DNA from: Cytophagaceae bacterium
GTDB lineage: Bacteria; Bacteroidota; Bacteroidia; Cytophagales; Cytophagaceae
DNA: 64,000 bases
Direction: 5' to 3'
Assembly (NCBI GenBank): GCA_046290815.1
Contig: JBKBUF010000027.1
Span: 1 to 64,000 of the forward strand
Below are positions 18,853 through 35,147 of the stretch, piece after piece. Each line of letters starts with the position of its first letter. Positions within the stretch are counted from its first letter, which is position 1. The notes below the pieces were generated by a model. That model was not told the origin of the DNA and searched no databases. It worked only from the letters and a program-made list of their open reading frames with translations. The translations under genes and the position numbers were made by a program.

Positions 18853-18880
18853 TTTATCATTTATCATTTATCATTTATCG
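18853..18880. repeat. Heptanucleotide tandem repeat (CATTTAT)4 spanning the stop codon of the 1631-aa gene
   Basis: The sequence catttatcatttatcatttatcatttatc is read directly from the window. Confidence 0.8.
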
Positions 18881-21800
18881 CCTTCTTTATCCCTTCCAGG
18901 CTCTCTCCCAATACCGACACCTGCGCCAATAGCTTCGCCATATGATCCTGACCGTCCATGCCGCGGAATTTCTGGTTCTTGCGGAAGGTGGTTTTGATCT
19001 CTTCCCATCTCTCTTTCTCTTTTTCAGTCATCCAGCCTGCGATCTCTTTAAACTTTAAAAGATTCGCCTCAGCACCGGTAGTTAATGTTTGCGATTCGTT
19101 TTGATAATGACCAAGGATAAGATTTTTTAATTCTTCATCGTTCATCAGCGGAACCACTTTCTCCGCCATTTTATTCATATTACGATAAGAACCCTGCAAC
19201 TTAAATGGAGGCTCTGTCCTGAACTCGTCTGATTGAGATGCTGATCTTATGTACTCAAGATTTACTTTCAGTACCAGTTCTCTTATGGCGTTAAGCTTCT
19301 TCAAAACTGATACCACTTCGTTGCTTTCTTCTGCAGAATAGGCACCTTCAAAATCAAGTCCCGTCTTATCTCCAGTTTCCACCAAAGAAAGGTATGAATG
19401 AACATCTTTAAGACTCTTATTAGAAACTCTTGATGTTACCGGATTAGAGGTAAGTGTATTTTCAATGTAGCTTAACTTAAATACATTGTCCTTGCCGCCA
19501 ATGATATCACCGAGATTATAGGTATCTGCTCTGTTGGCAAGCATGTCCGGAATTTTAAACTTCTCTCCGCTTTCTGTATACGGATTACCGGCCATTACCA
19601 CACATACCTTCTTGCCTCTGAAATCATAGGTTTTACTTTTTCCTTTATAAACACCTTCAATTTTTCTCTGTCCGTCACAAAGGGAAATAAACTTCTGCAA
19701 AAATTCTGCGTTGCAATGTTGGATATCGTCAATGTATATCATTACATTGTCTCCCATTTCAAAAGAGAGATTCAGCTTCTCCAACTCTTCTCTCGCTCCT
19801 GCATTGGTCGCCTCGGCCGGATCCAGCGATGTTACTTTATGACCTAAAGCAGGACCATTGATTTTCATAAATATTAATCCTAGTCTGCTCGCCACATATT
19901 CCATCAATGTAGTCTTACCATAACCCGGAGGTGATATAAGCAGGAGCATACCCATTTGGTCTGTTCTCTTATTTTCTCCAACCACACCTATCTGTTTGGC
20001 CAGGTTCGCACCTATCAAAGGAAGATAAACTTCGTCAATCAGTTTGTTTCTGACAAAAGAGGAAAGCACCTTGGATTTAAACTCATCCAGTCTTAACTGT
20101 TGTTTATATGCATCTATTAACTGAATTTTCAGGTGCTGATACTTTTCAAAAGCCGAAGCATGCTGATTGATATATAATGACAACTTATTGATGAAGCTGT
20201 TATAGTCCAGCAAATACTTTCCCTTTTCAATAAGTGCATGTTCTCCGCTCAGGCCTTGTAACTCTACAGATGTTTCTGTACGAATAACTTCTCCCTGAGA
20301 ATCTTCAAAGAGCAGCATAAGTGCTGTTTCTTTAAAAACTGAATTATCTGCTGCTAAACCTTCGCTGCTGCAGAAAGCCCTTATCCACTTCACTGCTGCC
20401 GATAATGTATTGGATGCATCGTTTTCAAATTTCTTTATCGACTCCTGAAACAGATCTCCATATTTATTCTTCTTCAGATAGGTGTTGAAGCTGTTATACA
20501 AATTGTGGGCAGGAAGGCTGGAAATAAATTTGTCACCACGCAGCAATTCCATAAACAGGTATTCTGCGGCCTGGTGTGCAAGTTCATTATTAAACTGACC
20601 TGTTGCATCGTTGTATGCCATAATAGACAACTCTACCTCATTTACCAGATCATCAAAGTCTCTTGCATCGGGGAATACTTTCAATATAAGTGAAAGTCCT
20701 TTGATTTTATTCTGAAGCAAGGTTCTTTGCTGCTCCTCTATCCCTGTATGATACCAGAACCTTGCACAGGCTCTTGCCTCTGAATTGTAAGTAAGCAGAT
20801 CTATGCTTCTGTACAGTTTCATCAGCGCTTTCAAAATTATTAGCGCATCTCTGTCACTCACACCTTTAAGGTAACCTTCTGCATAACGGGTAGACATAAA
20901 CTTCTGGATAAACTCCAGCAACTCATTTTCACTCATCAGCTCAAGATTTTCACTGATATTTTTATTGATATAGGATTGGAAAATAACGTAAGCCAGATAT
21001 TCTCCTTTATAAATATCTCTGTTTTCAGAAACTATAATCTGATTCCAGAAGGGCTTAGTCTGAATGAATGATTCGTCACTTATCCTTTCGAAAAATCCTG
21101 TACCGGTAATATGGTAAAACATTTCATTATCTCTGTTTACCATAGTAAGGTCTATAGGTTGTGTATTTACTGAGAAATGAAACTTACCGAATTTAATTAC
21201 ATTACCTCCTTCTGTGAACAGCTCCTGTTTATCTTTCAGCTGCCTGAGTGCATCTTCCTTTGCTGACTTTAATCTTCCCTGTATATCATCTGCCTTTACC
21301 GTATCCTTCAGTTCTTGTAGCTGCTTCACTATATCTCTCAGCTTATCGAGCATGAGATCAGAAGCGAAATAGCCATTGATGTCGGAAGCAGTTTTAAAGT
21401 TGTTCAAACGGTTTTTTACGCCGCTCAAAATTCTTTCTGCAGCGGACATAAGTGAGTTTGCTTTCCTGTTATTCTGCTCTACAAGCTGAAGTTTTCTGTT
21501 TTCAAAAGCTTCATATACCTCTTCTCTCTTTTCCGTTAGAGTAGTAATGAACTGATCGAAATCAGCAAACTTACCCTCAAGCTCCTCGATCTGTATCATT
21601 ACCTTTGAAAGGTATTCATCACATTTCTCTGGCTGATCTGATATATCCAGGTAATTGACAATAGACTGATCTATCAGCTTGATCTGGGCATGAAACTCAG
21701 CCAAACTTTCGGATTTTTTTAGTTCAAGCTTTTTATTTCTGATCCCTGCCTTCAATTGATTAACTTCTGCAAAAACCAATGAGATGTTGTCAATAATTTT

Positions 21801-23759
21801 TGTAGTCTGTGTAGCATCTTCTATTTTTAGGTTGCTGACAATTTCAATCAGCATTTCCAGTTGTTTCGCAGCATTCCCTATTTCTTCCTCTACTTTTGTA
21901 GCCTCAGTTACCTTGGAAGCTTTTTCAATATCTGCCTTGAGCTGGATTGTTCTTTCTTTATAGGGCAGCAGGGATTTTTCCTGTAGAAGGAACTGTACAC
22001 ATGAACGGGAAAGTTTGTCTGTCTGCTCAGCTACCTGAGCTTCCATGTGCTTTACCTGCTCAACATCAACATACCTTAGCTCTTTCAAACCAATTATTTC
22101 TCCTCTGAGTTGACGTAGGTCTGAAAGGGCTTTAACATAAGTATTGATATCCTGAAACTTCTCCCTCTTGATGAACGCCTGTACTTCATTTACTTTTTCA
22201 TTGCAGGCTTTTACCTGTTGCAGGGTATTCTTCTTAATCCTTACGACTTTCTCAAACTCCTCTATCGTTGCCGATGCAGTATTCCGGATATCAGTTAAAG
22301 GAATAGCCAGATTGCAGGCATCTTCCTCTCTGATCCAGAAATAACTGTCGAGTACATCATTGCTTCTGTTTACAATATCGAGATAAAGATTTTCATAACT
22401 TTCGTCGTCTTTCCTGATTAAGTTAAGAAGCTCTGTACACTCGGACATAGCACGCACGATGTTTTTGTTACCGATCTTAAACAAATAAGAATCAGGAACA
22501 GATGCAGGCACGTAATCCTGAGAAGTAAATGCGGTCTGCCATATCTGAATGACATGGTGTTTGGAAGCTTCATCTTCCGTTAAAAAATAAATCAGCTCAC
22601 CGTTTTTGAACAATGAATACCCGTTGCATACAATCAGGTTTTCTACCTTCTGTTGGATAATATTATATGGTAGCAGAATGTAAGCTCCATTGTCGCTATG
22701 ATAAAAAACATATAGATGATCTTCTCCGTTAGGGGATGAAATACGTTTTTCAAATTTCAACCCCTGTAATTCATTTTCAAAAAGCTTATACTCTCCTGTC
22801 TGCAAATAATAACCTTTTGAAAATATCAACCCTTGTGCATCAGGTAACAAAACACAGGAATCTTTTATAGCATCAATCCGCTGTGCTTTCTTTATTTTGT
22901 GATTGTAAACGATGTACCTGAAATTATCTTCCTTAAAGGGTCGAATCTTAAGAAGTATAATGTTACCCAGGTCTGCATAATACATTTCAGCATCATCCAG
23001 CCTTTGATCTTTATCTTCTACCGGTTCGGAATAAATACCCTCCCCTGTATCGGTGTTGTCTTCTACTTTAATGGTAAGATCACCGCCAACTGTCTCGATA
23101 AAAACTTTATCCAGAACAGAAATATGAGGATGCTTTCCTTTTCTGTGATAATCTCTGGAAGTTCTCAACCATTCAAACTCGAACTGTGCAGGATATTTGA
23201 ATTCACTTTCACTCCTGTTTCCTTCATATTTCAAGGAGGAACCCTGAATAAGCCACTTGAAAGTTTTGAAGTCATTAGGATTTTTCCCTATTCTGAAAAC
23301 CATGTGAAGGTAGGGGCCAATCACAGCGAACTTTTCAAAATATGTGTTCTTGTAATACTTATAAAGCTCTCTGAAGTCCAGCTCGAACTGATCGATCTTA
23401 ATCAGATCAAGTCCGGCAGCATGAAAAGATAGGTTGTTGAACTCATAGATACTGAATACATCGCTTAGGACTGTTTCTGATCTCAGTCCAATGTGTACGT
23501 TGTAACCAAAAAGCAGGTATTGCCCCAAAGCAATCATATCTCTGGGGACGCAGTTATTTTCAGTGGTAATGCGGTCGGTAGCTATAAGTTTGGTTTCAAT
23601 AGCGCCGAATACATTTTTCCGCTCTTCATTCAGCTTGTTGAGTCTCTCTGTAAGTTCGCTGCTTGCCTTCTCCAGTCTGCTTTTCAGAATCTCATAAGTA
23701 CCGGCATCAAGCTGATTTTTTTGACTTTCTTTATGGTCACGGCTTTTGTTTTCAGCCAT
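18864..23759 (-). CDS. Giant (1631 aa) uncharacterised AAA+ ATPase. The N-terminal ~450 aa are beta-rich, a central region of ~600 aa is coiled coil, and a C-terminal AAA_5/MoxR-dynein-like module follows.
   Basis: Walker A is LLLISPPGYGKTTL. Walker B is VMIYIDDIQH. Sensor-like segments are VCVVMAGNPYTESG and IPDMLANRADTYNLGDI. A long heptad-like E/K/L-rich middle region is present. The gene lies immediately downstream of the nfeD-flotillin pair on the same strand. Confidence 0.8.
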   Translation of the reverse strand: MAENKSRDHKESQKNQLDAGTYEILKSRLEKASSELTERLNKLNEERKNVFGAIETKLIATDRITTENNCVPRDMIALGQYLLFGYNVHIGLRSETVLSDVFSIYEFNNLSFHAAGLDLIKIDQFELDFRELYKYYKNTYFEKFAVIGPYLHMVFRIGKNPNDFKTFKWLIQGSSLKYEGNRSESEFKYPAQFEFEWLRTSRDYHRKGKHPHISVLDKVFIETVGGDLTIKVEDNTDTGEGIYSEPVEDKDQRLDDAEMYYADLGNIILLKIRPFKEDNFRYIVYNHKIKKAQRIDAIKDSCVLLPDAQGLIFSKGYYLQTGEYKLFENELQGLKFEKRISSPNGEDHLYVFYHSDNGAYILLPYNIIQQKVENLIVCNGYSLFKNGELIYFLTEDEASKHHVIQIWQTAFTSQDYVPASVPDSYLFKIGNKNIVRAMSECTELLNLIRKDDESYENLYLDIVNRSNDVLDSYFWIREEDACNLAIPLTDIRNTASATIEEFEKVVRIKKNTLQQVKACNEKVNEVQAFIKREKFQDINTYVKALSDLRQLRGEIIGLKELRYVDVEQVKHMEAQVAEQTDKLSRSCVQFLLQEKSLLPYKERTIQLKADIEKASKVTEATKVEEEIGNAAKQLEMLIEIVSNLKIEDATQTTKIIDNISLVFAEVNQLKAGIRNKKLELKKSESLAEFHAQIKLIDQSIVNYLDISDQPEKCDEYLSKVMIQIEELEGKFADFDQFITTLTEKREEVYEAFENRKLQLVEQNNRKANSLMSAAERILSGVKNRLNNFKTASDINGYFASDLMLDKLRDIVKQLQELKDTVKADDIQGRLKSAKEDALRQLKDKQELFTEGGNVIKFGKFHFSVNTQPIDLTMVNRDNEMFYHITGTGFFERISDESFIQTKPFWNQIIVSENRDIYKGEYLAYVIFQSYINKNISENLELMSENELLEFIQKFMSTRYAEGYLKGVSDRDALIILKALMKLYRSIDLLTYNSEARACARFWYHTGIEEQQRTLLQNKIKGLSLILKVFPDARDFDDLVNEVELSIMAYNDATGQFNNELAHQAAEYLFMELLRGDKFISSLPAHNLYNSFNTYLKKNKYGDLFQESIKKFENDASNTLSAAVKWIRAFCSSEGLAADNSVFKETALMLLFEDSQGEVIRTETSVELQGLSGEHALIEKGKYLLDYNSFINKLSLYINQHASAFEKYQHLKIQLIDAYKQQLRLDEFKSKVLSSFVRNKLIDEVYLPLIGANLAKQIGVVGENKRTDQMGMLLLISPPGYGKTTLMEYVASRLGLIFMKINGPALGHKVTSLDPAEATNAGAREELEKLNLSFEMGDNVMIYIDDIQHCNAEFLQKFISLCDGQRKIEGVYKGKSKTYDFRGKKVCVVMAGNPYTESGEKFKIPDMLANRADTYNLGDIIGGKDNVFKLSYIENTLTSNPVTSRVSNKSLKDVHSYLSLVETGDKTGLDFEGAYSAEESNEVVSVLKKLNAIRELVLKVNLEYIRSASQSDEFRTEPPFKLQGSYRNMNKMAEKVVPLMNDEELKNLILGHYQNESQTLTTGAEANLLKFKEIAGWMTEKEKERWEEIKTTFRKNQKFRGMDGQDHMAKLLAQVSVLGESLEGIKKAINDK

Positions 23760-23789
23760 AATAATTTAAAATTAAGTGTTGAAAAAAGG

Positions 23790-23905
23790 ATTTCACGCAA
23801 AGATTAGCAAAGGGAACGCAAAGACCGCAAAGGTTTTATAGGATTTAAAACAGTTTACCTATGCTTTGCGTTCTTTGCGAATCTTTGCCGTCCTTTGCGT
23901 GAATA
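23790..23905. repeat. ~115-bp imperfect palindrome made of eight ~10-bp CGCAAAG-containing units (four direct, four inverted) that fills the flotillin / AAA+ intercistronic gap
   Basis: The left arm is tcaCGCAAAGattaGCAAAGggaaCGCAAAGacCGCAAAGg. The right arm is CTTTGCGttCTTTGCGaatCTTTGCcgtcCTTTGCGtga and abuts the flotillin stop codon. Confidence 0.7.
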
Positions 23906-25993
23906 TTAATCCTTTAAGTTTTTAAACTTTAATCCAAGGCTGCTCACTGTCTGATCTGCAATACCTGCTGCCTTTACGTCTTTCAATAAAGTGTCAAGTG
24001 TGCTCTTCAAAGCATTATCGACTGTTTGTGAACTTAATCTCAACAGCAACGCAGATATGCTCAGATTTTTGATGTCAGCGCTGCTGATGCCATGGCTGGC
24101 AAGTATATTCTGAATTCTTTCGATTACATTTTCAGATCCGTCACCAAGCAATGAATCTTTGATGCCGGTAAATACTTTGCTGTTGTCCACCATTCTGTCC
24201 ATTGCTTTTCCTTTAGTAACAGACCCGACAATCTTGTCAAAGAAGGTAGTCTCACCGCCAACGATATCGATCTTAGCAGACTTCAATGCTTCAGACACAA
24301 CTTTGGCTTGTGCTTCTGCAATATCTTTCTGGATATGAATTTCCGCCAATTCGATAGCTTTTTCTTTCTCCAGCTTAAGTTTGAACTCTTCGTGGTCTTT
24401 ACCAACTCCGTCAAGTTTCTTCATAGCTGCAGCCTTCTGCTCTATACCCTGAGCTTCCACTTCAAGTTTTTTGTTAAGTACTGTAGCTTCCACGATGCCT
24501 TTTTTCTCATCTGCAACAGCTTTTGCTTCTATACCTTTTGCTTCCGCCATGGCTTTTTTCTCCATCACTACGGCTTCTGTCGTTCCCTGTTTCTCTAATG
24601 CTTTAGCTTTAGCTTCGATCACCGTAGCCTCAGCAACTCCTTTTGAAGACTCTTCAAGTACTACCACTTCCACTATAGTCTTTCTGGCATCTGCCTGCAT
24701 CTCTGCAGCTTTTTGTTCTGCTTCCGCTTCGATCAGTTTCTGCTGCGCTTTGAGTTCTGCAGATGACTTCATTGCTTCAGCGAGTTTAATTTCTTTGATT
24801 TTCTTCTCTTCTGCCTCAGTAGTTGCCACAGTAAGTGCCACCTCTTTGGTTCTGTGAGCTTCAGCAAAAGTTTTGGTGTCTTTGATTTTTTCTTCTTCTT
24901 CTACTACTGATTTCTGCAATGCCACTCTTTCTCTTATCACATCCTGAATGTTCTTTTTCTCCTCTTCCACTGCTTTTTCTTTCTCTATCTGAGCAAGCGC
25001 CACTACTCTTTCTTTCTCGTTTGCCTCAAGTAGTTTATCTTTTTCTACCCTTTGTGTTTCCACAGCCTCTGTTCTTTCTTTGCTCTTTGAAGCCACGATG
25101 ATCTGGCGAAGTTTGTTTTCTTCGGCTATCTGAGTTTCCTCTTCTGCCTTGATTCTGGCTATATCCGCTTTCAATTTTTCCTCTGCAGTAACTTTTTCAG
25201 CTTCGGATCTCTCTCTTGCCTTGATGATGGCTACTTCTCTTGCCTGCTTCTCTTCGGTTTCGGTCAACTGTTTGTTCAACTCAAGGATAGCTTCTTTCGC
25301 TTCTACGTCCTGCTTCTTAATTACCTTTTCTTCATTTCTTCTGATTTCGTTAGCAAGGATTTTTTGCTGAGCAGTCATCTCGGTAATTTTCTTAATACCT
25401 TGTGAGTCAAGAATGTTATCTACTTTAAGGAATTCAAGAGGAGTCTGCTCCAGATAATCTATAGCGCAGTCGTCAAGGATGTAACCGTTAAGGTCAGTTC
25501 CGATGATGTCAAGTATTTCCTGCTTGAATTTGTCACGGTCTGAATAAAGATCAATGAATTCAAATCTTCTTCCGACAGTTTTCAAAGCTTCGGAAAACTT
25601 TGCATCGAAGATGGTGACAAGCGTATCTCTGTTAGATGCTCTTTCGCAACCTATGGTCTGAGCTACTTTTACAACGTCTTCTACTGATTTGTTTACTCTC
25701 ACGAAAAAGGCAACTTCTATATCAGCACGGATGTTGTCTTTACAAATCAATCCATCTTTGCCGATTCTTTTTATCTGAAGAGACTTCAATGATATATCCA
25801 TGATCTCCATTTTGTGGAGCACAGGTATAACAAACATAGCAGAGAAAGTTACTTTCGTACCTCCGGCACCGGTTCTTACTATAGCTTTTCCCTGTGGAAC
25901 TTTATTGTACCACTTGATCGCAAGTACAAATACTATAAAAACGAAGAATAAAGAGCCGACAATAACGGTCAGCATTAAATTTTCCAGAAACAT
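23906..25993 (-). CDS. Flotillin-like SPFH/band-7 protein with a long coiled-coil (EA-repeat) region
   Basis: An N-terminal TM segment is followed by an SPFH domain (..GKAIVRTGAGGTKV..ISLKSLQI..DNIRADIEVAFFVRV..) and then extended A/E/K-rich heptad repeats. The whole is typical of FloT/YuaG-type flotillins. Confidence 0.85.
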   Translation of the reverse strand: MFLENLMLTVIVGSLFFVFIVFVLAIKWYNKVPQGKAIVRTGAGGTKVTFSAMFVIPVLHKMEIMDISLKSLQIKRIGKDGLICKDNIRADIEVAFFVRVNKSVEDVVKVAQTIGCERASNRDTLVTIFDAKFSEALKTVGRRFEFIDLYSDRDKFKQEILDIIGTDLNGYILDDCAIDYLEQTPLEFLKVDNILDSQGIKKITEMTAQQKILANEIRRNEEKVIKKQDVEAKEAILELNKQLTETEEKQAREVAIIKARERSEAEKVTAEEKLKADIARIKAEEETQIAEENKLRQIIVASKSKERTEAVETQRVEKDKLLEANEKERVVALAQIEKEKAVEEEKKNIQDVIRERVALQKSVVEEEEKIKDTKTFAEAHRTKEVALTVATTEAEEKKIKEIKLAEAMKSSAELKAQQKLIEAEAEQKAAEMQADARKTIVEVVVLEESSKGVAEATVIEAKAKALEKQGTTEAVVMEKKAMAEAKGIEAKAVADEKKGIVEATVLNKKLEVEAQGIEQKAAAMKKLDGVGKDHEEFKLKLEKEKAIELAEIHIQKDIAEAQAKVVSEALKSAKIDIVGGETTFFDKIVGSVTKGKAMDRMVDNSKVFTGIKDSLLGDGSENVIERIQNILASHGISSADIKNLSISALLLRLSSQTVDNALKSTLDTLLKDVKAAGIADQTVSSLGLKFKNLKD

Positions 25994-26029
25994 AAAACAG
26001 AATATTAAATGGTTAAAAGTGTATGAAAA

Positions 26030-26647
26030 TTAATTATTGGAATCGTAGGGTTCTGCAAGGTAGTAGCCTTTCGCAGGGAAGAACTCTATAAGAAGAGCTG
26101 ACTGTCCTTTCTTTAAAATTTTTCCTTCAGAGGTTTTTACATGCACCAGGATAGAGTCACCATTGCGGTTTACTTCACCCTGTCCCATCTGTTGAGCGCT
26201 TGCTTCAATGGTAAGGGTGCAAACCGAACCTGTGAAATCTGAAGTCAATTCTTCTTCAGGCTTATTCAGCATTGCATAAACTTTGCTAAGCGGAGCGGTT
26301 ACAATCTTAGTCAGAATAAAACCTCCGAAGATATTTGGAATAAATATCAGCAAACCTAACAGCAAACTGCTGTTTCCCAGATAATGGTTGCAGAACATGG
26401 TACCTGTCCAGAAGAACAGGGCAAAGAAGCTGATCACGATAGTAATCGGAAGATCACCGAAGCCGACATATTTTGCTATGCCAGATTCGGAATGTGCATC
26501 CGCGTCGGTATGAACATCAGCATCGCCAAACATTTCAAGGTCGAAAAGACCAAGAAGATTGACAATCCAATAGAGCAATACCAATGCAAGTAATGCAGTT
26601 GCCGGCAGATTAGGAGCCTTAATGGCTTCCTCAAATATTTCAATCAT
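26030..26647 (-). CDS. NfeD-like membrane protein (flotillin-associated, YuaF/YqiJ family) with a C-terminal OB-fold
   Basis: There is an N-terminal multi-TM region and a C-terminal beta-rich soluble domain. The gene lies immediately upstream of flotillin with a 37-bp gap, which is the canonical nfeD-flotillin pairing. Confidence 0.7.
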   Translation of the reverse strand: MIEIFEEAIKAPNLPATALLALVLLYWIVNLLGLFDLEMFGDADVHTDADAHSESGIAKYVGFGDLPITIVISFFALFFWTGTMFCNHYLGNSSLLLGLLIFIPNIFGGFILTKIVTAPLSKVYAMLNKPEEELTSDFTGSVCTLTIEASAQQMGQGEVNRNGDSILVHVKTSEGKILKKGQSALLIEFFPAKGYYLAEPYDSNN

Positions 26648-27107: not shown

Positions 27108-29255
27108 TCATTGTTTAACAAACATCCTGATCACTACTCCCGATTCATCCTTTAGCATGTACAGTCCTTTATCGAGTGATGAAATGTCAATTTCCATTCC
27201 TTCATGTACATGAACATTCATTAGCACTCTTCCGCTGAGATCTGAAATTTCCCAGTTGCTGTCATTGGCATTGGAAATAAAAATTCTGTCTGTAGCAGGA
27301 TTAGGATATACTTTGAAAGTATCTATGGATTTATTTATGCCTGTAACAATAGCAGAAGTAAATTCCATGTGATGAAGGTTAACATTGCCTGTAATAATAT
27401 GTACCCTGAGTATATGTTCCCCTTGTGAAAGAGAAATATTTGTAAAGTTTGTATTTGCCCATGTTTGCCAGCCTCCTGTTGCAGGAAGATTTAACTGAGG
27501 ACTTACAAAATTTCCACCAATGCTTAAACGTATTGCACCGGCTGTATTAAGACCTGCATGACGAACCCTCAGGTTATACAATCCGGGCTGTGTTACATTC
27601 ACCGTATATTCAAGCCACTCACCTGCAATCGTCCATCCGACGTTGTAACCACCTCCGGTTGCAGCTTCTATATCCACTGCATCGTTTCTTAATGCTCCAC
27701 CTTCGTTTGCAGGAGTAGTATCATAAAAGCTTAAATTTTGTCCTCCGGTGTCATAAGTCTCAAACTGAATGGTGCCGGGAATAAGATGTGCGGATCCACC
27801 GTATGGACTGCGTGTACCTCCTGTAATGTTATTTTCGATCTTATTGATGTAGGCCACCGCACCATTGAAGGCAGCATTATAATAACTGCAATATTCGCTG
27901 GAAACATAGTTGTTAATTCTATCATGAAAGTTGTTGCAGGCAGACTCCGGACCTCCTGCAAGTCCTCCTGACAATGTATAACCAAAAGGAACAGATCCCG
28001 GATTGTTTCCTTCCTGGGTATATAAGGTCCATGCATTGGAAGACTTACCAAATGCGGCTGCATGATGAGGAGATTTGGGAAATCCTCCTCCAAGGACATT
28101 ATAACCTATGAGAAAAGAAAAATTTGCAGGAGCATTCGGCCCGATACCATTATGAGTACCCAGAATAAAATCAACATTTCTTTTTGCAAAAGTATATGCC
28201 GAAGCACTTCCAGAGGACCTATGATAAAGTGCCGACAGGAAAGCTGCATTTCCGGCATCGCGCAAAGATCCCCAGTTGGTGTTATGAAAATATCCGCAAG
28301 ACTGATTTGTATATGCATTAACCCTGCTTGCTACACGGTTAAGCCAAGTGGTGGTCCCTGTTATTTCATACAACTCATAAAATAAAAGATGATTCATAGT
28401 ACCATAATCAAAGCCTGCACTTTGGCTTAAAGAATTGGCATAATTCGTAGCTTCAGTCAGATAAGTATTAGTGGCTGTCGCGCGATAAAGCATGGCCGCA
28501 GCTAGTCCCATCTCGTCAGCATAACCCGCATTTGCAAGCCACGAATAAAATCCATCTGTGGATCTTGCATCAGCAGTAGAGGCAGGGTTAATTTTTCCTA
28601 TTGTATAATAGGAGACTGCCGCATTCAGGCAGGACTGAGCATAATTAGCATCGTAGCTTTTATATAGGATCGACATTAGTGCCAAAGCCGCGGCACTATT
28701 CCCAAATGCATTAGACCTTCCGGAAGTGGCAGAATAAACAGTACGGATATTAGATCCATTATACAAAGTCTGGCTGGAATTGGAAATAGGTTCGTTAAAG
28801 CTATTATGGTCATTGCCATCTCCTATCTGCCAGTAAATGGTGTTACCATTTACACATTTGATTAAGAAGTCTGTTTCAATCTTTACCTCATCCAATACAT
28901 CAGGAATACCATTTGCCGGAGGTTTGGAATATGCCTGGGAATACTGATCGGGATACACCTCAGGAAATTTGTCCATACCATATAAGTAAACCAGTGCAGT
29001 GTACGGACCGGTAACATGGAATTTAATGTAATCACCGCAATCGTGCCAGCCTCCTGTCAGGTCCCGACCGATACTTTGTCCGTCAGTGGTATGACAGCCG
29101 TTGCTGGTTTCCGGCTGAATCCAGGATTTGGTGTTGCCACATCTTTGTGCACCTAAAAAGCGGGTGGAAAGATGTTGTGCCAACCCATAATTATGCTGTG
29201 CCTGGCTGGAAATGTACCCTAAAAGGACAATGCATGTAAAAATTAACTTCTTCAT
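27108..29255 (-). CDS. GH9-family endoglucanase with a T9SS type-A C-terminal sorting domain. The likely start is the internal Met (MKKLIFTCIVLLGYISSQAQ), and the ORF is open up to 29312.
   Basis: The GH9 signature DLTGGWHDCGDYIKF is present (compare the family consensus DxxGGWYDAGDHVKF). The C-terminus VYPNPATDRIFISNAND..GLYMLKDESGVVIRMFVKQ is a T9SS CTD. Confidence 0.85.
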   Translation of the reverse strand: MKKLIFTCIVLLGYISSQAQHNYGLAQHLSTRFLGAQRCGNTKSWIQPETSNGCHTTDGQSIGRDLTGGWHDCGDYIKFHVTGPYTALVYLYGMDKFPEVYPDQYSQAYSKPPANGIPDVLDEVKIETDFLIKCVNGNTIYWQIGDGNDHNSFNEPISNSSQTLYNGSNIRTVYSATSGRSNAFGNSAAALALMSILYKSYDANYAQSCLNAAVSYYTIGKINPASTADARSTDGFYSWLANAGYADEMGLAAAMLYRATATNTYLTEATNYANSLSQSAGFDYGTMNHLLFYELYEITGTTTWLNRVASRVNAYTNQSCGYFHNTNWGSLRDAGNAAFLSALYHRSSGSASAYTFAKRNVDFILGTHNGIGPNAPANFSFLIGYNVLGGGFPKSPHHAAAFGKSSNAWTLYTQEGNNPGSVPFGYTLSGGLAGGPESACNNFHDRINNYVSSEYCSYYNAAFNGAVAYINKIENNITGGTRSPYGGSAHLIPGTIQFETYDTGGQNLSFYDTTPANEGGALRNDAVDIEAATGGGYNVGWTIAGEWLEYTVNVTQPGLYNLRVRHAGLNTAGAIRLSIGGNFVSPQLNLPATGGWQTWANTNFTNISLSQGEHILRVHIITGNVNLHHMEFTSAIVTGINKSIDTFKVYPNPATDRIFISNANDSNWEISDLSGRVLMNVHVHEGMEIDISSLDKGLYMLKDESGVVIRMFVKQ

Positions 29256-29535
29256 AAGCGAGAGATTTTGATTAAAACCAGATTCTGCTTTTAAGAAAAA
29301 AGACCTGGGCACAATTGCAACCTTAGGGATAAAAAACAGGCAATAAAAACTGCTGAATATATGCTAAAAATGATAAAAAATCCCATAATAATATCATTAC
29401 CATTGATCAAAATCGTTGAAAATCAATTGATATTTAAGAGGGCCTTATGCGGGAAAATAACAGAGGAATATTTTTTTTCCAAAAGGAGGCTTTCAAAAAT
29501 CTTTGATAACAGCAAAAATAGCACTTTTCTCCTCA

Positions 29536-30290: not shown

Positions 30291-31115
30291 ATGAGTAAAA
30301 AAAACACGAAAGAAAATCTTCCTATAAACCAATATTTAATTCAAAGTGGAAACCTGGCTGGGAGATTTAAAGAATATGAGTCGTTAGTAGAAGGAATAGA
30401 AATTAAAAAAAGCGCTGGCCTGCTGATGCAAGACAGTGCTTTCCTAAGTTTTACTGAGCTATTTCCAGGCATTGTAGCACTGGCAGATTTTGCAAAGGGC
30501 GAATACCTTTACATTAAAAACATGGAAGCCATACTTGGCTATTCCAGCCAGGATTTTTTTGATAAGGGCATTAGCTTCACATTGACCTTGTTTCCTCCGG
30601 AACATAATGAAGTCATCATCAATCAGATTTTCCCGACAATGTTTTCAATCATTCAGGAAGAAGCAGCCAAAGGTAAGGTGGAAGGTTTCAGAATCTCTTA
30701 TCCTACAAGAATGATCATGAAATCAGGAAAGACTTCATGGTTTTTGCATCAGATCAACATTCTTCAAAGCTATCCCGACGGGAAGCATCTTGCCTTAAAA
30801 CTACTTTCCGAAATAGAGCATGTGAAGAAAGACGAGAGCATCACCCTTTCGATAAGCAAGAAAGACAACAAAGGAATTTACTTTCCTTTTTTCACCAAAA
30901 CATTTATTCCGGGCCAACAAAAAGAAGAACTTTCCAATCGTGAACTGGAAGTACTGTCATTGCTTAGCCAGGGGAAATCCAGCAAGGAAATTGCCGATAT
31001 GCTTTTCTTAAGTGAACATACGGTTTATAACCATAGAAAAAATATGCTGAAAAAATTAAAGGTCAACAGAACCGCTGACCTTGTGTCAAAAGCATTTACC
31101 AATGGATTGATATAA
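30291..31115 (+). CDS. LuxR-family transcriptional regulator with an N-terminal PAS-like sensory domain
   Basis: The C-terminal GerE/LuxR HTH is LSNRELEVLSLLSQGKSSKEIADMLFLSEHTVYNHRKNMLKKLKV. The N-terminal ~200 aa are PAS-like (..YIKNMEAILGYSSQDFFDKGISFTLTLFPPEH..). Confidence 0.75.
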   Translation: MSKKNTKENLPINQYLIQSGNLAGRFKEYESLVEGIEIKKSAGLLMQDSAFLSFTELFPGIVALADFAKGEYLYIKNMEAILGYSSQDFFDKGISFTLTLFPPEHNEVIINQIFPTMFSIIQEEAAKGKVEGFRISYPTRMIMKSGKTSWFLHQINILQSYPDGKHLALKLLSEIEHVKKDESITLSISKKDNKGIYFPFFTKTFIPGQQKEELSNRELEVLSLLSQGKSSKEIADMLFLSEHTVYNHRKNMLKKLKVNRTADLVSKAFTNGLI

Positions 31116-31132
31116 GTATTCCTTACATTCAA

Positions 31133-34100
31133 ATGAATTTTTCAAATTGTGCCAATAAAGGAATTTTATTGGCGCTGACATTTTTACTTATCATATTCAC
31201 ATCTAATGCACAGAGCGACAGCAGCAGATCTGAACTTTCATTTGATTTTGGAATTACCAGAGGAAGAAACCTAAACTTGTGGCCTGTTTTGAAAAAATAC
31301 AAGGACCATGAAAAGAAGGAGCTTCAGATTTTATACCCTATTTACTCTAAAGTAAAATATTTCGACCTACATATAAAACACAGTCATCTTCTACCTTTGT
31401 TTATTGCGGACAGCTCCGCACAGGGTACTGAAAAAAGGTATATCACTTTCTTTTATCCAACTCTTTTTCATTACCAAAAACAGACCATCAGGGAAGAAAC
31501 AATAAAGTCAGCAAAATTTCTGGAGCTGGCGCCTAATATTTCAATGTTAGGAATAAGCAGATCTCCAAAAGGACTATTTGTAGAGAACAATTTATTCTTT
31601 TTTATATGGCACAAAAGAGACGAGCTTAACCAAAAATCAAGACTTATTGCTTTCCCGCTTTACTGGCACTTTTCGACAGCTACTGATACAAGTCATCTTT
31701 TGCTTCCATTTTTTTATAAGAAGAAAAGTAAAGATCTGGAAAAATTTAATTTACTGGGAGTCTACAATTATCACCGTAGCAAATATAAAAAAAATCATAC
31801 CGTCTTTCCTGTATGGTGGAGCAGAGAAGAATATTATGGAAGAGACACCACAAGCAAAAAGATAATATTTCCTGTATACTGGCAGATGAACAGTAAAATC
31901 AGGAGCCATTATGTATTTTTCCCTCTCTTTTATAACTTTAATTATGCACATTATAAGACAACCACAGTAATTCCATTATTTTCTAAAGGCATTTCTCCTG
32001 ACGAAAGCCAAAGTCATTTTGGATTCCTTAACTACTGGAAAATAAAAAACAAAAACAAAGAAACTAAATTGCTGATTCCGGTGGGATGGAACACCAAAGA
32101 AATGTATTCTAATGACACGATCAGCAAAACAACCTTTCTTTTTATGTTCTGGTCAATACGGAGCACCAATAAAAAAGAAGACATTTTCCCGCCATTTTTC
32201 TATCGCTATCAAAATTCTTACTATCGCACCTTTTCATTCTTCCCATTCATATCATACGGAAAACAAACCGGTACTGACAACAAGTACCTTTCAGTAACAC
32301 CGTTCTACTGGAAAATAAGAAATGCACATAGCCATAAAGATATATTGATACCCCTGGCCTGGAAAACCTACCGGTATACAGATAAAGGGATGATTGAAAA
32401 AACAACATTATTTCCAATTTACTGGAGAACCAAAAGTAAAGAAACAAATAATACTATATTGTTTCCTTTAGTTTTCAAAACCGACAACAAGCATTACAGT
32501 TCATTAACTATCTGGCCAGTCTACTCCAAAGGTATTTCGAAAGACTCCATCATCAGCCATTCAGGTTTTCTCACCTGGTTCAAGGTGCAGTCACCCCAGG
32601 GGACAACTTCTTTTATAGTACCGCTTGGCTGGAAAACAAAAACATTTCAGAAAGATGACACCTTAACCAGATTTACTGCATTCCCTTTGTACTGGAGCGC
32701 AAAGAGTAAAGTAAAAAATAACAAAACCTTATTTCCTCTATTATACTACCGGCACAACGACAAACGTACAGCTATTACATTTTGGCCGGTATTTACATAT
32801 GTAAAAAGAGCTGATTCTTTGAGAACACTTCTTTCGGTGACACCTTTTTATTGGAGGGTAAGAGAAAAATATTATAAAAAAGATCTTTTGATTCCTCTGG
32901 CTTGGAAAGTTAAACATTATCTCGACCATGACACGGTTCATATTTCCTGCGCTATTCCTCTATTCTATAGCAAGCGAAATAAAAATACAGGAACAAAAGT
33001 GATTTTTCCTTTTTACTACAGCTATCACAACCCTGAATACAAAACTTCAGGTATATTTCCATTATTCTCTAACGGAAGCTCAGCTGATAATAAGATGGCT
33101 CACCTTGCCTTTTTTAATTATTTCAGGTACCGTACACCAAACACCCATATTAAAGTTTTATTTCCACTGGGATGGGTAAAAGAAAGATATTATAAAAATG
33201 ACACCGCAAGAGTTGCAACATTATTTCCGATATATTGGTCAGCTAAAAGTAAAGAAACGAAGCAAAAATATCTCCTACCATTCATTTATACCACACAAAA
33301 CAAGGGCTACAGATCCTTCACATTTTTCCCGCTTGCATCCTTTGGCAAATCTGCAGACAGCACAAGTGCTTCTCACCTTACCATAACACCACTATTCTGG
33401 AAAACAAATAATAAACAGGAAAGCAGAACCATTTTATTTCCGCTTGTATGGCACAGAAAGGAATATTTCCGAAATGACACACTTGTATATACCAGAATTA
33501 TTCCCTTTTATTTTTCTACATGCACCAACAACAAACAGAACAAAACAATTTTCCCTATTATTTACAGCATCAACAACAAGAGATACAAATCATTTACATT
33601 CTTTCCCTTACTCTCACACGGACACTCCAAGGATAGCTTAAAAACAAGATCACATGTTATGATTACCCCATTGACAGGAAGATTTAATTCTAAGGATAAA
33701 TCCACCACCTTTTTATTTCCTTTGATAACCCACAAAAGGCAGGGTGACGAAAACAGATTGTCAATCCTTCAGATTTTGTTCAGGTACTCTTCCGGAAATT
33801 CCGGAACAAGAGCATCATTACTATTTCCATTATGCGAATACAGAAAAGAAAACTCTAAACGAAGTTTCAGAATGGCTCCCGTTTTATGGTATGCTAAAAC
33901 GGACACAAGCCTTATGACTTCCATACAGCCTTTATACTATAGCTATCACAGCGAAACAAGAAATAGTTTCATTTTAGGTTGGTATCTCTATAAATATGAA
34001 AAAGTGAAAGAGGAATCTACTGCACATCATTTTCTGTGGAGATTCTTCTACAGGAAAAAATGGAACAATGGAGATTTTGAAACCAGATTCCTGCATATCG

Positions 34101-34348
34101 TTTATGCTAACGTAAAAAGAAAGGGAAAGCGTGAAAAAAGCATAATACCTATATACAGGAATGTGCGATACCCCGATGGCGACAGAAATGTTTCAGTTTT
34201 CTTTAATTTCTACAGCTACTTCAGACAGTACAAAAAAGAGATCAACGATTCGTATGAAGAGGAGCGTATATTCTGGTTTATACGTCTGCGATCTAACTAT
34301 GCAAGACTAAAAAGTGAAGGGAAAGATAAATATTTCAGAAGGAAATAA
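31133..34348 (+). CDS. Secreted 1071-aa tandem-repeat protein. It has ~40 copies of a ~22-aa unit (hFPLxWxxKxxxxNxT), organised into ~110-aa super-repeats that each contain a conserved W-G/W-K.
   Basis: The N-terminal signal peptide is ILLALTFLLIIFTSNAQ. Units such as LIPLGWKTK..DT, LFPLYWSAKSKxxNNKT, LFPLxYxxxNKxY and FWPVxSKGxSxDS recur visibly. The gene starts 18 bp after the LuxR gene. Confidence 0.75.
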   Translation: MNFSNCANKGILLALTFLLIIFTSNAQSDSSRSELSFDFGITRGRNLNLWPVLKKYKDHEKKELQILYPIYSKVKYFDLHIKHSHLLPLFIADSSAQGTEKRYITFFYPTLFHYQKQTIREETIKSAKFLELAPNISMLGISRSPKGLFVENNLFFFIWHKRDELNQKSRLIAFPLYWHFSTATDTSHLLLPFFYKKKSKDLEKFNLLGVYNYHRSKYKKNHTVFPVWWSREEYYGRDTTSKKIIFPVYWQMNSKIRSHYVFFPLFYNFNYAHYKTTTVIPLFSKGISPDESQSHFGFLNYWKIKNKNKETKLLIPVGWNTKEMYSNDTISKTTFLFMFWSIRSTNKKEDIFPPFFYRYQNSYYRTFSFFPFISYGKQTGTDNKYLSVTPFYWKIRNAHSHKDILIPLAWKTYRYTDKGMIEKTTLFPIYWRTKSKETNNTILFPLVFKTDNKHYSSLTIWPVYSKGISKDSIISHSGFLTWFKVQSPQGTTSFIVPLGWKTKTFQKDDTLTRFTAFPLYWSAKSKVKNNKTLFPLLYYRHNDKRTAITFWPVFTYVKRADSLRTLLSVTPFYWRVREKYYKKDLLIPLAWKVKHYLDHDTVHISCAIPLFYSKRNKNTGTKVIFPFYYSYHNPEYKTSGIFPLFSNGSSADNKMAHLAFFNYFRYRTPNTHIKVLFPLGWVKERYYKNDTARVATLFPIYWSAKSKETKQKYLLPFIYTTQNKGYRSFTFFPLASFGKSADSTSASHLTITPLFWKTNNKQESRTILFPLVWHRKEYFRNDTLVYTRIIPFYFSTCTNNKQNKTIFPIIYSINNKRYKSFTFFPLLSHGHSKDSLKTRSHVMITPLTGRFNSKDKSTTFLFPLITHKRQGDENRLSILQILFRYSSGNSGTRASLLFPLCEYRKENSKRSFRMAPVLWYAKTDTSLMTSIQPLYYSYHSETRNSFILGWYLYKYEKVKEESTAHHFLWRFFYRKKWNNGDFETRFLHIVYANVKRKGKREKSIIPIYRNVRYPDGDRNVSVFFNFYSYFRQYKKEINDSYEEERIFWFIRLRSNYARLKSEGKDKYFRRK

Positions 34349-34418: not shown

Positions 34419-35147
34419 TTATTGATTCTCCAGTCTCTTTGCTTCAGCAAGCTTAGCTTTTAGCTGAGCAAGAGAGTCTGTTACTGCAGGATGCACCATA
34501 CTGCCTTCAAGCGCTTTATTGATTTGCTCATCAATTGATTTATTGTTATCAGCAATGGATGCATAAGACTCAGCAAGTGCTTCTTCCTGTCTTATTTTAT
34601 CCTTCATTTTCTCCAACATTCTCAAAGTATTGTTAGCATCAAGTCCAGCAAGCTTCTGATTGAAATCTTTGGTACTACGAGCCACTTTCACTCTTGCTTT
34701 CAGCGATCCCAATTCGCTCTCGTAACCTTCGATTTTAGATTTAAGCATTTTGTTGTTACTATCAATTTTAGAAGCCATTTCATTGTATTGTCTGGTTGAT
34801 AATTGCAGTGACTGTACATGCTGCTCAGTAGTATGCTTTTTCATGAGTGCTTCAGCAGCTAGTCTGTCAGCCTCTGTAGCTTCAAGATTCCCTGCTTGTG
34901 CCTTCTGTAAAAGCAGCAGGGCTTTATGCTCATATTCCCCGGCAATTTTCAATTTCTCCTTTTGCTCATTTTCTGCTTTTATTGCCAGAGCTTTAATTTC
35001 GGCAAGACTCTTCAATCCCTTGTTAAGATCTTCTCTCAGATCTCTTATACCCTGCTCAATCATATTGATCGGGTTTTCAAGTTTGTCAAGTGCAGCATGA
35101 GCTTCTGCTTCACCAATTTTGAATAATCTTCTGAACCAGTTAAACAT
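34419..35147 (-). CDS. pspA: PspA/IM30 (Vipp1) family protein
   Basis: The N-terminus MFNWFRRLFKIGEAEAHAALDKLENPINMIEQGIRDLREDLNK aligns with the PspA N-terminal helix. The protein is alpha-helical and coiled-coil throughout, and its length (242 aa) fits the family. Confidence 0.85.
   Translation of the reverse strand: MFNWFRRLFKIGEAEAHAALDKLENPINMIEQGIRDLREDLNKGLKSLAEIKALAIKAENEQKEKLKIAGEYEHKALLLLQKAQAGNLEATEADRLAAEALMKKHTTEQHVQSLQLSTRQYNEMASKIDSNNKMLKSKIEGYESELGSLKARVKVARSTKDFNQKLAGLDANNTLRMLEKMKDKIRQEEALAESYASIADNNKSIDEQINKALEGSMVHPAVTDSLAQLKAKLAEAKRLENQ

Follow-up and report, generated by a model that had tools for sequence, protein, structure and literature searches.

A flotillin/NfeD/giant ATPase locus of a Cytophagaceae bacterium, probably an abbreviated Psp-associated membrane-stress operon

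The window analysed here, i.e., a stretch of 64,000 nucleotides from a Cytophagaceae bacterium, encodes on its minus strand an NfeD-like membrane protein, a flotillin-like protein and a giant AAA+ ATPase (Table 1), which together probably represent the 'abbreviated' form of a Psp-associated membrane-stress operon, whereby the AAA+ protein would remodel assemblies of flotillin and NfeD and perhaps also those of PspA. All three open reading frames named in a preliminary description of this DNA were recovered at the positions given there; 36 nt separate the NfeD-like from the flotillin-like gene, 146 nt the flotillin-like from the ATPase gene, and the next gene downstream follows after 175 nt. 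In the preliminary description a giant ATPase partner was considered to lie outside the described flotillin/NfeD modules. This claim of novelty fails, as the trio has already been published: the same operon was described as a PspA-associated module by Ravi et al. (mSystems 2024, preprint 2020), with Dokdonia donghaensis ANH61663.1 as an example, and the three genes are bacC-bacD-bacE of Pseudomonas aeruginosa. The work of Ravi et al., purely a study in comparative genomics, proposed a role in sub-membrane assembly and dynamics and suggested ESCRT-like analogues. Order and domain architectures of the three core genes match between their operon and the window, whereas pspA of the window lies at a distance of 7.8 kb and has a J-domain gene as its partner, in place of one for CesT/Tir. 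The CesT/Tir-PspA dyad that the full form of the operon includes is hence absent, and because of the distant pspA and the lack of any CesT/Tir homologue in the window the locus fits the form published as 'abbreviated'.

An experimentally handled instance of this operon is bacABCDEF of P. aeruginosa (PMC10948618), corresponding to PA3732-PA3727, with BacC being a short NfeD protein, BacD the SPFH protein PaFlo3 and BacE the product of PA3728 (PA14_16190). Its genes are orthologous to those of the window and kept in the same order, with identities of 42% for the ATPase (1634 aligned columns), 44% for the flotillin (639 aligned columns) and 22% for the NfeD-like protein (E 3e-11); the bac operon differs in having genes for YjfI (DUF2170) and PspA at its start and one of the PLD family at its end. 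Mapping of the published bac primers onto the DUF3686 locus identified BacE (PA3728) as the DUF3686 AAA+ orthologue, a designation found nowhere in those bac operon papers known to us. A sigma-54 promoter was proposed for the operon, bacD-bacE-bacF were reported to be co-transcribed in PA14, and the proteins BacB-F were found co-regulated, with a 6-13-fold increase in a bacA mutant. Deletion of paFlo3 (bacD) in PA14 lowered biofilm formation by only ~20% and was devoid of a strong stress phenotype, and the published phenotypes cover bacA, bacB and paFlo3, not bacE. The preliminary description had reasoned that its finding would fall if the ATPase turned out to be of a known family with an established, unrelated role: the first part of this condition holds, family and operon being known and tied to Psp, but not the second.

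What carries the assignment beyond the single locus is the linkage of flotillin and ATPase genes. Whether the ATPase always follows flotillin had been raised as a check. Of the 64 informative loci, for which the upstream sequence exceeds 2.4 kb, 61 have the flotillin gene as immediate upstream neighbour of the ATPase gene, in the same orientation and with a median gap of 178 nt. As these loci were sampled from Bacteroidota, Planctomycetota, Verrucomicrobiota, Kiritimatiellota, Desulfobacterota and Clostridia, such a recurrence across phyla puts the arrangement far beyond chance. In another seven loci, which are truncated, part of a flotillin gene is present; the linkage also persists in all five of the most divergent family members, with propeller identities of 27-34%, and it was found in Proteus, on the Pseudomonas plasmid pQBR103 and in P. 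aeruginosa. Upstream of the flotillin gene the NfeD-like gene is present in 51 of 60 loci. The ATPase occurs without an adjacent flotillin gene in five loci (L005, L032, L034, L003 and L011), and in at least one case (L089) a flotillin/NfeD pair of the same subfamily has no ATPase gene nearby. The ATPase as a dedicated, conserved cis-partner of the flotillin/NfeD pair is therefore supported by the linkage counts, and the absence of conserved linkage, which had been named as a ground for refutation, is not what was found. A further conserved gene between flotillin and ATPase was considered and rejected: insertions of 1-2.4 kb in six loci carry unrelated genes for small lipoproteins or membrane proteins, or toxin-antitoxin-like or transposase-like genes. 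Equally, the three genes downstream of the ATPase (for a 139-aa membrane protein, a 226-aa lipoprotein and a 312-aa barrel), which had been left as possible members of the unit, are not part of it, as 0 of 80 loci carry homologues; they matched nothing in Pfam, NCBIfam and PADLOC.

Table 1. Positions of the genes, domains and motifs of the locus and of the pspA pair within the window
Feature	Position	Strand	Basis or remark
PspA/IM30 homologue, 242 aa	34419..35147	-	Pfam PspA_IM30, E 1.4e-35
J-domain protein, 128 aa	35276..35662	-	Pfam DnaJ, E 4.6e-10; immediately upstream of pspA
YqiJ/YuaF-type 'short NfeD' membrane protein, 205 aa	26030..26647	-	ORF and hydrophobic segments
Divergent flotillin-like (SPFH) protein, 695 aa	23906..25993	-	ORF, orthologues
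Flotillin-like: N-terminal membrane anchor, aa 1-33	25895-25993	-	one hydrophobic segment
Flotillin-like: SPFH-like region, aa ~28-200	25394-25912	-	
Flotillin-like: E/K/A-rich helical region, aa ~201-560	24314-25393	-	
Flotillin-like: conserved C-terminal domain, aa 561-695		-	
Intergenic hairpin element and U6 run	23780..23903	-	folding
BacE-type giant AAA+ ATPase, 1631 aa	18864..23759	-	ORF, profiles, homologues; no TM segment
ATPase: N-terminal beta-propeller (Pfam DUF3686), aa 35-474	22338..23657	-	preceded by a long helix, aa 19-51
ATPase: coiled-coil region, aa ~488-857	21189..22298	-	crude heptad scan; DUF7902 inside (aa 596-677; 21729-21974)
ATPase: middle domain, helical plus small beta elements, aa ~860-1230	20070..21182	-	predicted model
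ATPase: AAA+ core, aa ~1231-1420	19500..20069	-	motifs
ATPase: Walker A PPGYGKTT, aa 1277-1284	19908-19931	-	
ATPase: Walker B IYIDD, aa 1341-1345	19725-19739	-	
ATPase: beta-hairpin before sensor-1, aa 1366-1379	19623-19664	-	
ATPase: C-terminal helical lid and extension, aa 1421-1631	18867..19499	-	helical in model; highly conserved

The ATPase, which is 100% identical to P0001 (a Cytophagaceae MAG), has the architecture of the Psp-associated operon's ATPase, i.e., propeller, coiled coil and AAA+ module. Its N-terminus, noted earlier as beta-rich, is a beta-propeller domain corresponding to Pfam DUF3686 (E 7e-183), the model of which resembles WD40 and sialidase folds. The subsequent coiled coil, which harbours DUF7902 (E 5.5e-26), had been put at ~600 aa, whereas the crude heptad scan gives ~370 aa with segments at 488-533, 607-689, 711-802 and 820-857. 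The model of aa 860-1631 possesses a mean pLDDT of 79.6, with aa 860-1230 mostly at 80-94, and structure comparison of this helical middle domain gave no specific match. The Walker A and Walker B motifs quoted in the preliminary description were both found, with no variation among 12 homologues that span several phyla; the AAA+ core further comprises a sensor-1 (VVMAGN) and a candidate arginine finger, R1410 in MLANRAD. The closest structures to the AAA+ module, at the level of a weak match, are the MoxR remodellers CbbQ and NorQ as well as midasin, which suggests that the C-terminus folds as a divergent MoxR/midasin-like AAA+ module. From MoxR proteins (CbbQ, NorQ, RavA) and midasin it differs in that no VWA/MIDAS partner is encoded at the locus, in its Walker B motif, which reads DD instead of DE, and in a substrate-binding part formed by a beta-propeller on a coiled coil. 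Since its Walker B deviates in this way, the ATPase may be slow or switch-like. An assignment to the classical AAA proteins (p97/Vps4-like), considered on the basis of sequence matches, was dropped because the alignments cover only ~40 residues and the structure favours a MoxR-like module; likewise, the protein is not a split ABC ATPase of the SMC/Rad50 type, as a contiguous AAA+ module at its C-terminus makes up the nucleotide-binding site.

These domains also bear on the name under which Pfam and NCBI keep the family, namely 'DNA repair ATPase'. A function in DNA repair would accord with the database names, with weak RuvB_N and RuvB matches found next to those to Pfam AAA (E 7e-7) and AAA_5 (E 5e-5), and with the location of recJ near the operon in P. 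aeruginosa, yet it is hardly credible: the RuvB and p97 matches span only ~40-50 residues around the P-loop, the RuvB equivalog models reach 21-23 bits against cut-offs of 282-299 and cover aa 1256-1307 only, Pfam finds no DNA-binding, nuclease or helicase domain in the protein, and its conserved partners are membrane proteins and PspA. No literature was found on DUF3686, PF12458 or DUF7902, and no paper backs the name.

For the two smaller proteins, the profile criteria disagree with their earlier designation as a canonical NfeD/flotillin pair. The flotillin-like protein has no Pfam match at E<1, Band_7 (PF01145) included, and its sole profile match is a weak one to NCBIfam FloT (E 3e-3, 16.5 bits against a cut-off of 700). 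Direct profile proof of an SPFH domain was sought in the PDB and not obtained: the full-length profile matched QmcA (E 1e-3) within the coiled-coil part, and the best matches of the N-domain profile, to stomatin PH1511, were non-significant (E 0.48). Band_7 is matched by 4 of 30 orthologues (best E 3e-13) as well as by the orthologue in locus L081, the pQBR103 copy is annotated 'SPFH domain-containing protein', and the databases name the protein 'flotillin family protein' (NCBI) or 'YqiK' (JGI). The SPFH homology of the window's protein is thus a putative one, drawn solely transitively via its orthologues; a flotillin-like gene next to the ATPase gene, as in the Psp-associated operon, is nevertheless what the locus has, with the window's protein itself below the Pfam thresholds. 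In the case of the NfeD-like protein, three hydrophobic segments (aa ~11-40, 60-86 and 90-118) precede a soluble C-terminal part of ~80 aa, as compared to one such N-terminal segment in the flotillin-like protein and none in the ATPase. Pfam YqiJ_N is matched by 15 of 26 orthologues (best E 1e-6) and by the window's protein with E 0.14; the NfeD C-terminal OB-fold domain (PF01957) is matched by 3 of 26 orthologues (best E 0.005) and not by the window's protein, and the family profile found as its best PDB match the soluble domain of YuaF (2k14), though with an E of 0.12 this is non-significant. A three-TM protein of apparent YqiJ/YuaF type is therefore encoded upstream of flotillin, as in the Psp-associated operon, an assignment made from the family and not from the window's protein alone. 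The gene order, NfeD-like then flotillin, is that of B. subtilis YuaF-FloT and E. coli YqiJ-YqiK (SPFH2, Hinderhofer et al. 2009), and shared with these canonical modules are an N-terminal anchor, an SPFH region and a long E/A-rich helical region, as well as a partner protein with three TM segments and a small domain at its C-terminus. The window's subfamily differs in being longer (~690-730 aa), in that most members are missed by Band_7, and in having a giant ATPase as third gene; the survey of Hinderhofer et al. described no ATPase partner, the word 'ATPase' being absent from it.

A hairpin of ~110 nt (23792-23903) was identified between the flotillin-like and ATPase genes, comprising four CGCAAAG units and their inverted copies and followed by a U6 run (23780-23785), with a folding energy of -49.4 kcal/mol and a z-score of -7.6 versus shuffles. 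That it belongs to a repeat family was rejected, as there is no second copy in the window and none in 89 loci; it may serve as attenuator or partial terminator. Scans for promoters, of the sigma-70 type only, and for terminators gave background level.

The connection to Psp rests on the neighbourhood of pspA. In the window, 7.8 kb separate the gene from the NfeD-like gene, upstream of which it is located; the four unrelated genes in between encode a GH9 protein, a DUF1569 protein, a LuxR protein and a 1071-aa repeat protein. A PspA orthologue is encoded upstream of the NfeD-like gene and on the same strand in 22 Bacteroidota loci, and downstream and on the opposite strand in L001. PspA is encoded no more than 10 kb away in 24 of 80 loci, of which 23 are from Bacteroidota and one is L077, as well as in L081. 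At least three different gene arrangements are represented; in most non-Bacteroidota loci PspA is not adjacent, and on pQBR103 it belongs to the yjfI-yjfJ(pspA) cluster. It is thus likely that pspA was displaced by inserted genes in the window and that PspA is a functional partner of the unit. The J-domain gene sits where other Bacteroidota have the CesT/Tir (YjfI-like) gene, and as the pair of J-domain gene and pspA is present in L001 too, this suggests that a J-domain protein can replace CesT/Tir beside pspA, with Hsp70 as alternative assembly factor. From the same neighbourhood one may reason that the ATPase mainly targets PspA, i.e., that it is a functional analogue of Vps4 which recycles ESCRT-III-like polymers, with flotillin/NfeD as recruiting membrane platform. 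Adjacency of PspA in at least three independent arrangements, reviews according to which bacteria are without a Vps4-like ATPase for PspA, and the analogues suggested by Ravi et al. speak for this idea, and a functional analogy is possible in so far as PspA, a member of the ESCRT-III superfamily, is genetically coupled to an AAA+ ATPase. Membership among Vps4-type classical AAA proteins was rejected, as both the MIT domain and a core of the classical clade are lacking, and the tightest partner is flotillin, not PspA. That PspA is the main target of the ATPase is unlikely.

An envelope-stress function fits the evidence, whereas for the defence-like module that the preliminary description had also considered, direct support was not obtained. 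Such an anti-phage or abortive-infection system would have flotillin/NfeD sense the membrane perturbation caused by a phage and the ATPase, in Proteobacteria together with the PLD-family protein, respond. PA3728-PA3732 belong to a set of 17 genes whose induction was seen in every sample infected with either of two virulent phages, the PLD-family gene follows the ATPase gene in P. aeruginosa, an AbiH gene adjoins the operon in Apibacter, and variable genes, including a toxin-antitoxin-like pair, are inserted in some loci. Induction by phage is, however, equally expected from a phage-shock-type stress response, PADLOC (PADLOC-DB v2) matched 0 of 6 proteins at E<0.01, 0 of 50,697 phage records carry a copy, and the ATPase is highly conserved (42-66% identity across phyla) and core-like, with 3222 member sequences in one P. 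aeruginosa cluster and a stable synteny with psp genes. A defence function is hence quite improbable.

Considering the probable assignment as a Psp-associated membrane-stress operon, the following working is suggested. The flotillin-like protein with its one N-terminal anchor and the three-TM NfeD protein would form a cage or microdomain at the cytoplasmic face of the inner membrane, for which the soluble 1631-aa protein would serve as dedicated ATP-driven remodeller. Its beta-propeller may dock on the flotillin/NfeD assembly or on a client held there, the ~370-aa coiled coil may act as spacer or lever, and the MoxR/midasin-like AAA+ ring would spend ATP on building, dismantling or reshaping the flotillin scaffold and might also act on PspA polymers recruited to damaged membrane. 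PspA would be the ESCRT-III-like effector; many Bacteroidota and Proteobacteria have its gene within the operon, and in the window it is found at a distance of 7.8 kb. Contact between the proteins, the identity of the substrate and the direction of remodelling are what we infer from this arrangement, and ring formation and ATP hydrolysis are likewise presumed for a protein whose Walker B reads DD. SPFH cage-formers coupled to an AAA+ machine at the membrane are known from HflK/C-FtsH and prohibitin-m-AAA, where the cage surrounds the AAA+ protein, a protease anchored in the membrane; by contrast, the 1631-aa protein is soluble and protease-free, with propeller, coiled coil and a MoxR-like core. 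By analogy to these systems and to erlin-p97, a protease-free quality control might be envisaged, in which the AAA+ protein extracts or unfolds damaged membrane proteins from the flotillin compartment. The conserved unit is, however, without protease domain or protease gene, a pore-loop motif was not identified in the ATPase, and its best structural matches are MoxR-type remodellers, which are not known to thread substrates. Quality control of this kind has therefore a low probability. As to remodelling proper, it is conceivable, if on balance doubtful, that the BacE-type MoxR-like AAA+ ring with its propeller on a coiled-coil arm opens, closes or recycles flotillin cages and/or PspA polymers in membrane repair and would thus be an independently evolved bacterial counterpart of Vps4. 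The idea of a Vps4-like remodeller was hinted at in print by Ravi et al.

The window's locus is an ordinary member of a family in which DUF3686 is known in one architecture only (724 clusters at 50% identity) and whose three-gene unit is spread over at least six phyla plus Proteobacteria, Actinobacteria and Deinococcus. What is gained is that the 'DNA repair ATPase' family (DUF3686) is now tied to BacE of the bac operon, that there is evidence for this database name being misleading, and that the gene linkage is quantified. Tractable organisms in which to study the unit are P. aeruginosa (PA3728-PA3730), Proteus mirabilis and P. fluorescens with pQBR103; being conserved and widespread, the unit is therefore a concrete candidate for the so far missing step at which the turnover of flotillin/PspA assemblies consumes energy.

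Three consecutive open reading frames on the minus strand, claimed in the preliminary description to encode an NfeD-like protein, a flotillin-like protein and a giant ATPase, were all confirmed, with gaps of 36 nt (NfeD-like/flotillin-like) and 146 nt (flotillin-like/ATPase), and a 175-nt gap followed by three more small open reading frames beyond the ATPase gene. By a simple hydropathy scan, the 205-aa protein has three hydrophobic segments, the 695-aa protein a single N-terminal one and the ATPase none. The two small proteins had been described as a canonical pair, for which neither qualifies by profile criteria: the 695-aa protein stayed without a Pfam match even when E<1 was allowed and matched FloT only weakly, its close relatives carry no precomputed Pfam domains, and the 205-aa protein matched YqiJ_N at E 0.14 only. 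At NCBI the 695-aa protein is named 'flotillin family protein' and at JGI 'YqiK'. As Band_7 was detected in four of 30 orthologues (best E 3e-13) and in the orthologue adjoining a distant ATPase in locus L081, and as the copy on pQBR103 is annotated as SPFH domain protein, sequence comparison places the 695-aa protein in a divergent, long flotillin subfamily, its SPFH membership being reached transitively, only through orthologues. The 205-aa protein is a member of the YqiJ/YuaF 'short NfeD' group; 15 of 26 orthologues carry YqiJ_N, and the family profile returned YuaF as best PDB match at a non-significant E of 0.12.

Features of the core operon and its surroundings (nucleotide positions of the window, or residues of the ATPase)
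Feature	Position	Strand	Remark
ATPase gene, 1631 aa	18864-23759	minus	
DUF3686	residues 35-474		Pfam E 7e-183
DUF7902	residues 596-677		Pfam E 5.5e-26
AAA	residues 1272-1392		Pfam E 7e-7
AAA_5			Pfam E 5e-5
Hairpin, ~110 nt, then UUUUUU	23780-23903	minus	in flotillin-ATPase gap
Flotillin-like gene, 695 aa	23906-25993	minus	
NfeD-like gene, 205 aa	26030-26647	minus	
GH9 glycoside hydrolase, CBM6/35 and T9SS C-terminal sorting domain	27108-29312	minus	between NfeD-like gene and pspA
LuxR-type regulator	30291-31115		
1071-aa protein, signal-like N-terminus	31133-34348	plus	adjoins LuxR-type regulator
pspA (PspA/IM30 homologue)	34419-35147	minus	7.8 kb upstream of core genes; Pfam E 1e-35
J-domain gene, small	35276-35662	minus	before pspA, in CesT/Tir (YjfI-like) place
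HlyD-type adaptor gene	35712-36902		
1456-aa ORF, RND pump (ACR_tran, aa 8-1030) and OEP (aa ~1269-1454)	36877-41247	minus	

Within the ATPase, the Walker A (PPGYGKTT) and Walker B (IYIDD) motifs noted earlier were both found and are invariant across phyla, and the coiled coil, put at ~600 aa in the preliminary description, was delimited by a crude home-made heptad scan to about aa 488-857, roughly 370 aa. A structure model of aa 860-1631 (pLDDT 79.6) shows a helical globular domain (aa 860-1230), an AAA+ alpha/beta core and a helical C-terminal part, whereby a beta-hairpin (aa 1366-1379) sits between Walker B and sensor-1 in the modelled core. The AAA+ clade appears to be MoxR-like, an assignment made on modest scores. 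The database label 'DNA repair ATPase', taken as a rival reading of the protein, has essentially no support, as the similarity to RuvB is confined to the P-loop, the protein carries no DNA-related domain and its partners are membrane proteins.

Scanning one genome per GTDB species for ATPase relatives identified more than 584 encoding stretches, the 80 best-scoring of which were fetched; this set is biased to relatives at at least 44% identity, which is offset by five distant members and proteobacterial loci. By record title it comprises 40 loci from Bacteroidota, 18 from Verrucomicrobiota, 11 from Planctomycetota, five from Clostridia, four from Desulfobacterota, one from Kiritimatiellota and one unclassified. 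Among these best 80 of more than 584, 64 extend more than 2.4 kb upstream of the ATPase gene, and in 61 of them a flotillin-like gene precedes it on the same strand (median gap 178 nt); seven truncated loci carry the 3' part of such a gene. In 51 of 60 loci the flotillin gene has an NfeD-like gene upstream of it. Between flotillin and ATPase, unrelated and non-conserved genes take up 1-2.4 kb in six loci, and five (L003, L005, L011, L032, L034) encode the ATPase with no adjacent flotillin gene. Where it is lacking, unrelated genes lie upstream, e.g., a C5-methyltransferase-like ORF (L005) or small ORFs (L032). The trio downstream of the ATPase gene in the window (membrane protein, lipoprotein and barrel) was found in none of these best 80 loci. 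A search with the propeller domain over 1.84 billion cluster representatives returned 724 clusters, the domain being N-terminal in every case and the full-length proteins measuring ~1600-1900 aa, while shorter entries look fragmentary. The most distant full-length members examined, five in number (27-34% propeller identity), all keep the order of ~210-aa gene, ~640-710-aa flotillin homologue and ATPase. Conversely, of three flotillin homologues examined, those of Apibacter and of an Acidobacteriota MAG are followed by the ATPase, and that of Cloacimonetes is not. The linkage, set as the central test, is thus convincingly conserved and near-obligatory. Further family members are encoded in Proteus mirabilis, Vibrio, Halomonas, Streptomyces, Nonomuraea, Deinococcus and on the P. 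fluorescens megaplasmid pQBR103, and none was found in 50,697 phage records.

The association of flotillin, NfeD and ATPase, initially taken as novel, had already been published: Ravi et al. (mSystems 2024; bioRxiv 2020) described operons combining CesT/Tir-PspA with three further genes, and reported that abbreviated operons lacking PspA occur more widely and may rely on PspA encoded elsewhere. The gene order in their supplementary entry for Dokdonia donghaensis matches that of the ORF clusters obtained here. Moreover, the 'biofilm-associated cluster' bacABCDEF of P. aeruginosa (PMC10948618) is an experimentally handled instance of the operon, in which BacA is a YjfI/DUF2170 protein, BacB PspA, BacC a short NfeD and BacD the SPFH protein PaFlo3, BacE and BacF being listed in the bac papers only as hypothetical proteins. 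That BacE is the DUF3686 ATPase was established in three steps, by homologue, gene order and primer mapping. The homologue P0393 (1746 aa, cluster of 3222 member sequences) is encoded in the order DUF2170, PspA_IM30, 213-aa gene, 688-aa gene, DUF3686 ATPase, PLDc_2, YaeQ, RecJ, LasB. On this locus the bacD/E forward RT-PCR primer maps to 7665-7684 in the flotillin gene and the reverse primer, with one indel in its printed sequence, to 8202-8221 in the ATPase gene, yielding the 557-bp product listed in the paper, and the two bacE/F primers fall at the 3' end of the ATPase gene and at the beginning of the PLD gene. Therefore co-transcription, proposed earlier as an RT-PCR check, has already been shown in PA14 for the orthologous flotillin, ATPase and PLD genes. 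Stress or phage induction of this operon was likewise documented in Pseudomonas: BacB-F proteins are up 6-13-fold in a bacA mutant, and PA3728-PA3732 (PA3728 being BacE) belong to a set of only 17 genes induced in every sample infected with two virulent phages; anti-phage defence is a less likely rival reading of the module. Deletion of paFlo3 alone lowered biofilm by only about 20%. No published study of BacE itself was found in the literature. Identity of the window proteins is 42% to BacE, 44% to BacD and 22% to BacC.

When all ORFs from the 80 loci were clustered, 21-23 Bacteroidota loci showed three extra genes on the upstream side of the NfeD-like gene, encoding a PspA/IM30 homologue, a 131-aa CesT_Tir_1/YbjN-like protein and a divergently transcribed HTH regulator. 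PspA linkage is recurrent and independently arranged: pspA lies just downstream of the ATPase gene in the Phycisphaerae locus L077 and convergent with it in L081 and L001, and on pQBR103 the core genes are fused to the whole yjfI-yjfJ(pspA)-DUF2491-DUF350-DUF1190-glutathionylspermidine-synthase cluster, i.e., appended to a polyamine-linked yjfI-yjfC cluster. Within the best 80 of more than 584 loci, PspA is encoded within 10 kb of the ATPase in 24, a count which may be too low outside Bacteroidota given the Bacteroidota-derived query and HMM. In the window pspA is parted from the core genes by the GH9 enzyme, a DUF1569 gene, the LuxR-type regulator and the 1071-aa protein; these four genes together look like an insertion by which this lineage had an ancestral pspA-nfeD-flotillin-ATPase operon split. 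The 1071-aa protein consists of many degenerate repeats rich in F/Y/P/L/W/K (e.g., 'FPLYW', 'IFPLFY') and has no Pfam match. Other Bacteroidota have the CesT/Tir (YjfI-like) gene before pspA, whose place the J-domain gene takes in the window, and the J-domain-then-PspA pair recurs in L001 (16009-17134), the closest relative of the window. In chloroplasts, HSP70B and the J-protein CDJ2 act on VIPP1 oligomers, to which the pair may be a parallel. The survey by Ravi et al. makes no mention of J-domain, DnaJ or Hsp70. The 1456-aa ORF, downstream of the HlyD-type adaptor gene, encodes a complete RND pump fused to an outer-membrane efflux protein domain, an unusual fusion of inner-membrane pump and outer-membrane factor. 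Beyond the ATPase gene, lineage-specific fourth genes were seen (L092, 13260-13952; L090; L084, 12001-13221), this position being held by the PLD-family (PLDc_2) protein BacF in P. aeruginosa and by a TelA (toxic anion resistance) gene in a low-GC metagenomic locus.

The flotillin-ATPase gap of the window holds a hairpin built from four CGCAAAG units, spaced by ~10 nt, and their inverted copies, with a folding energy of -49.4 kcal/mol (z -7.6) and no second copy in the window or in 89 related loci. It may be an attenuator setting flotillin:ATPase stoichiometry, or a protein-binding array.

Considering domain make-up and topology, flotillin-ATPase and PspA linkage, and transcription and induction of the Pseudomonas operon, a Psp-type membrane-stress module is favoured. 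Here, flotillin and NfeD would form a cage or microdomain at the cytoplasmic membrane face, to which the soluble ATPase would dock via its propeller, whereby the MoxR-like AAA+ ring might build, open or recycle this scaffold at the expense of ATP; protease-free quality control is a rival account of the ATPase. Alternatively, the ring could act on PspA polymers recruited to the scaffold, a target shared by the rival idea of a Vps4-like role on PspA. As linkage to flotillin (61/64) is much tighter than that to PspA (24/80), flotillin/NfeD are ranked as primary partner of the ATPase and PspA as accessory or downstream effector. The window locus is hence a real, ordinary member of an operon type known from comparative genomics and present in the P. 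aeruginosa literature under another name, and the interest that remains lies in the biochemical role of its giant ATPase.
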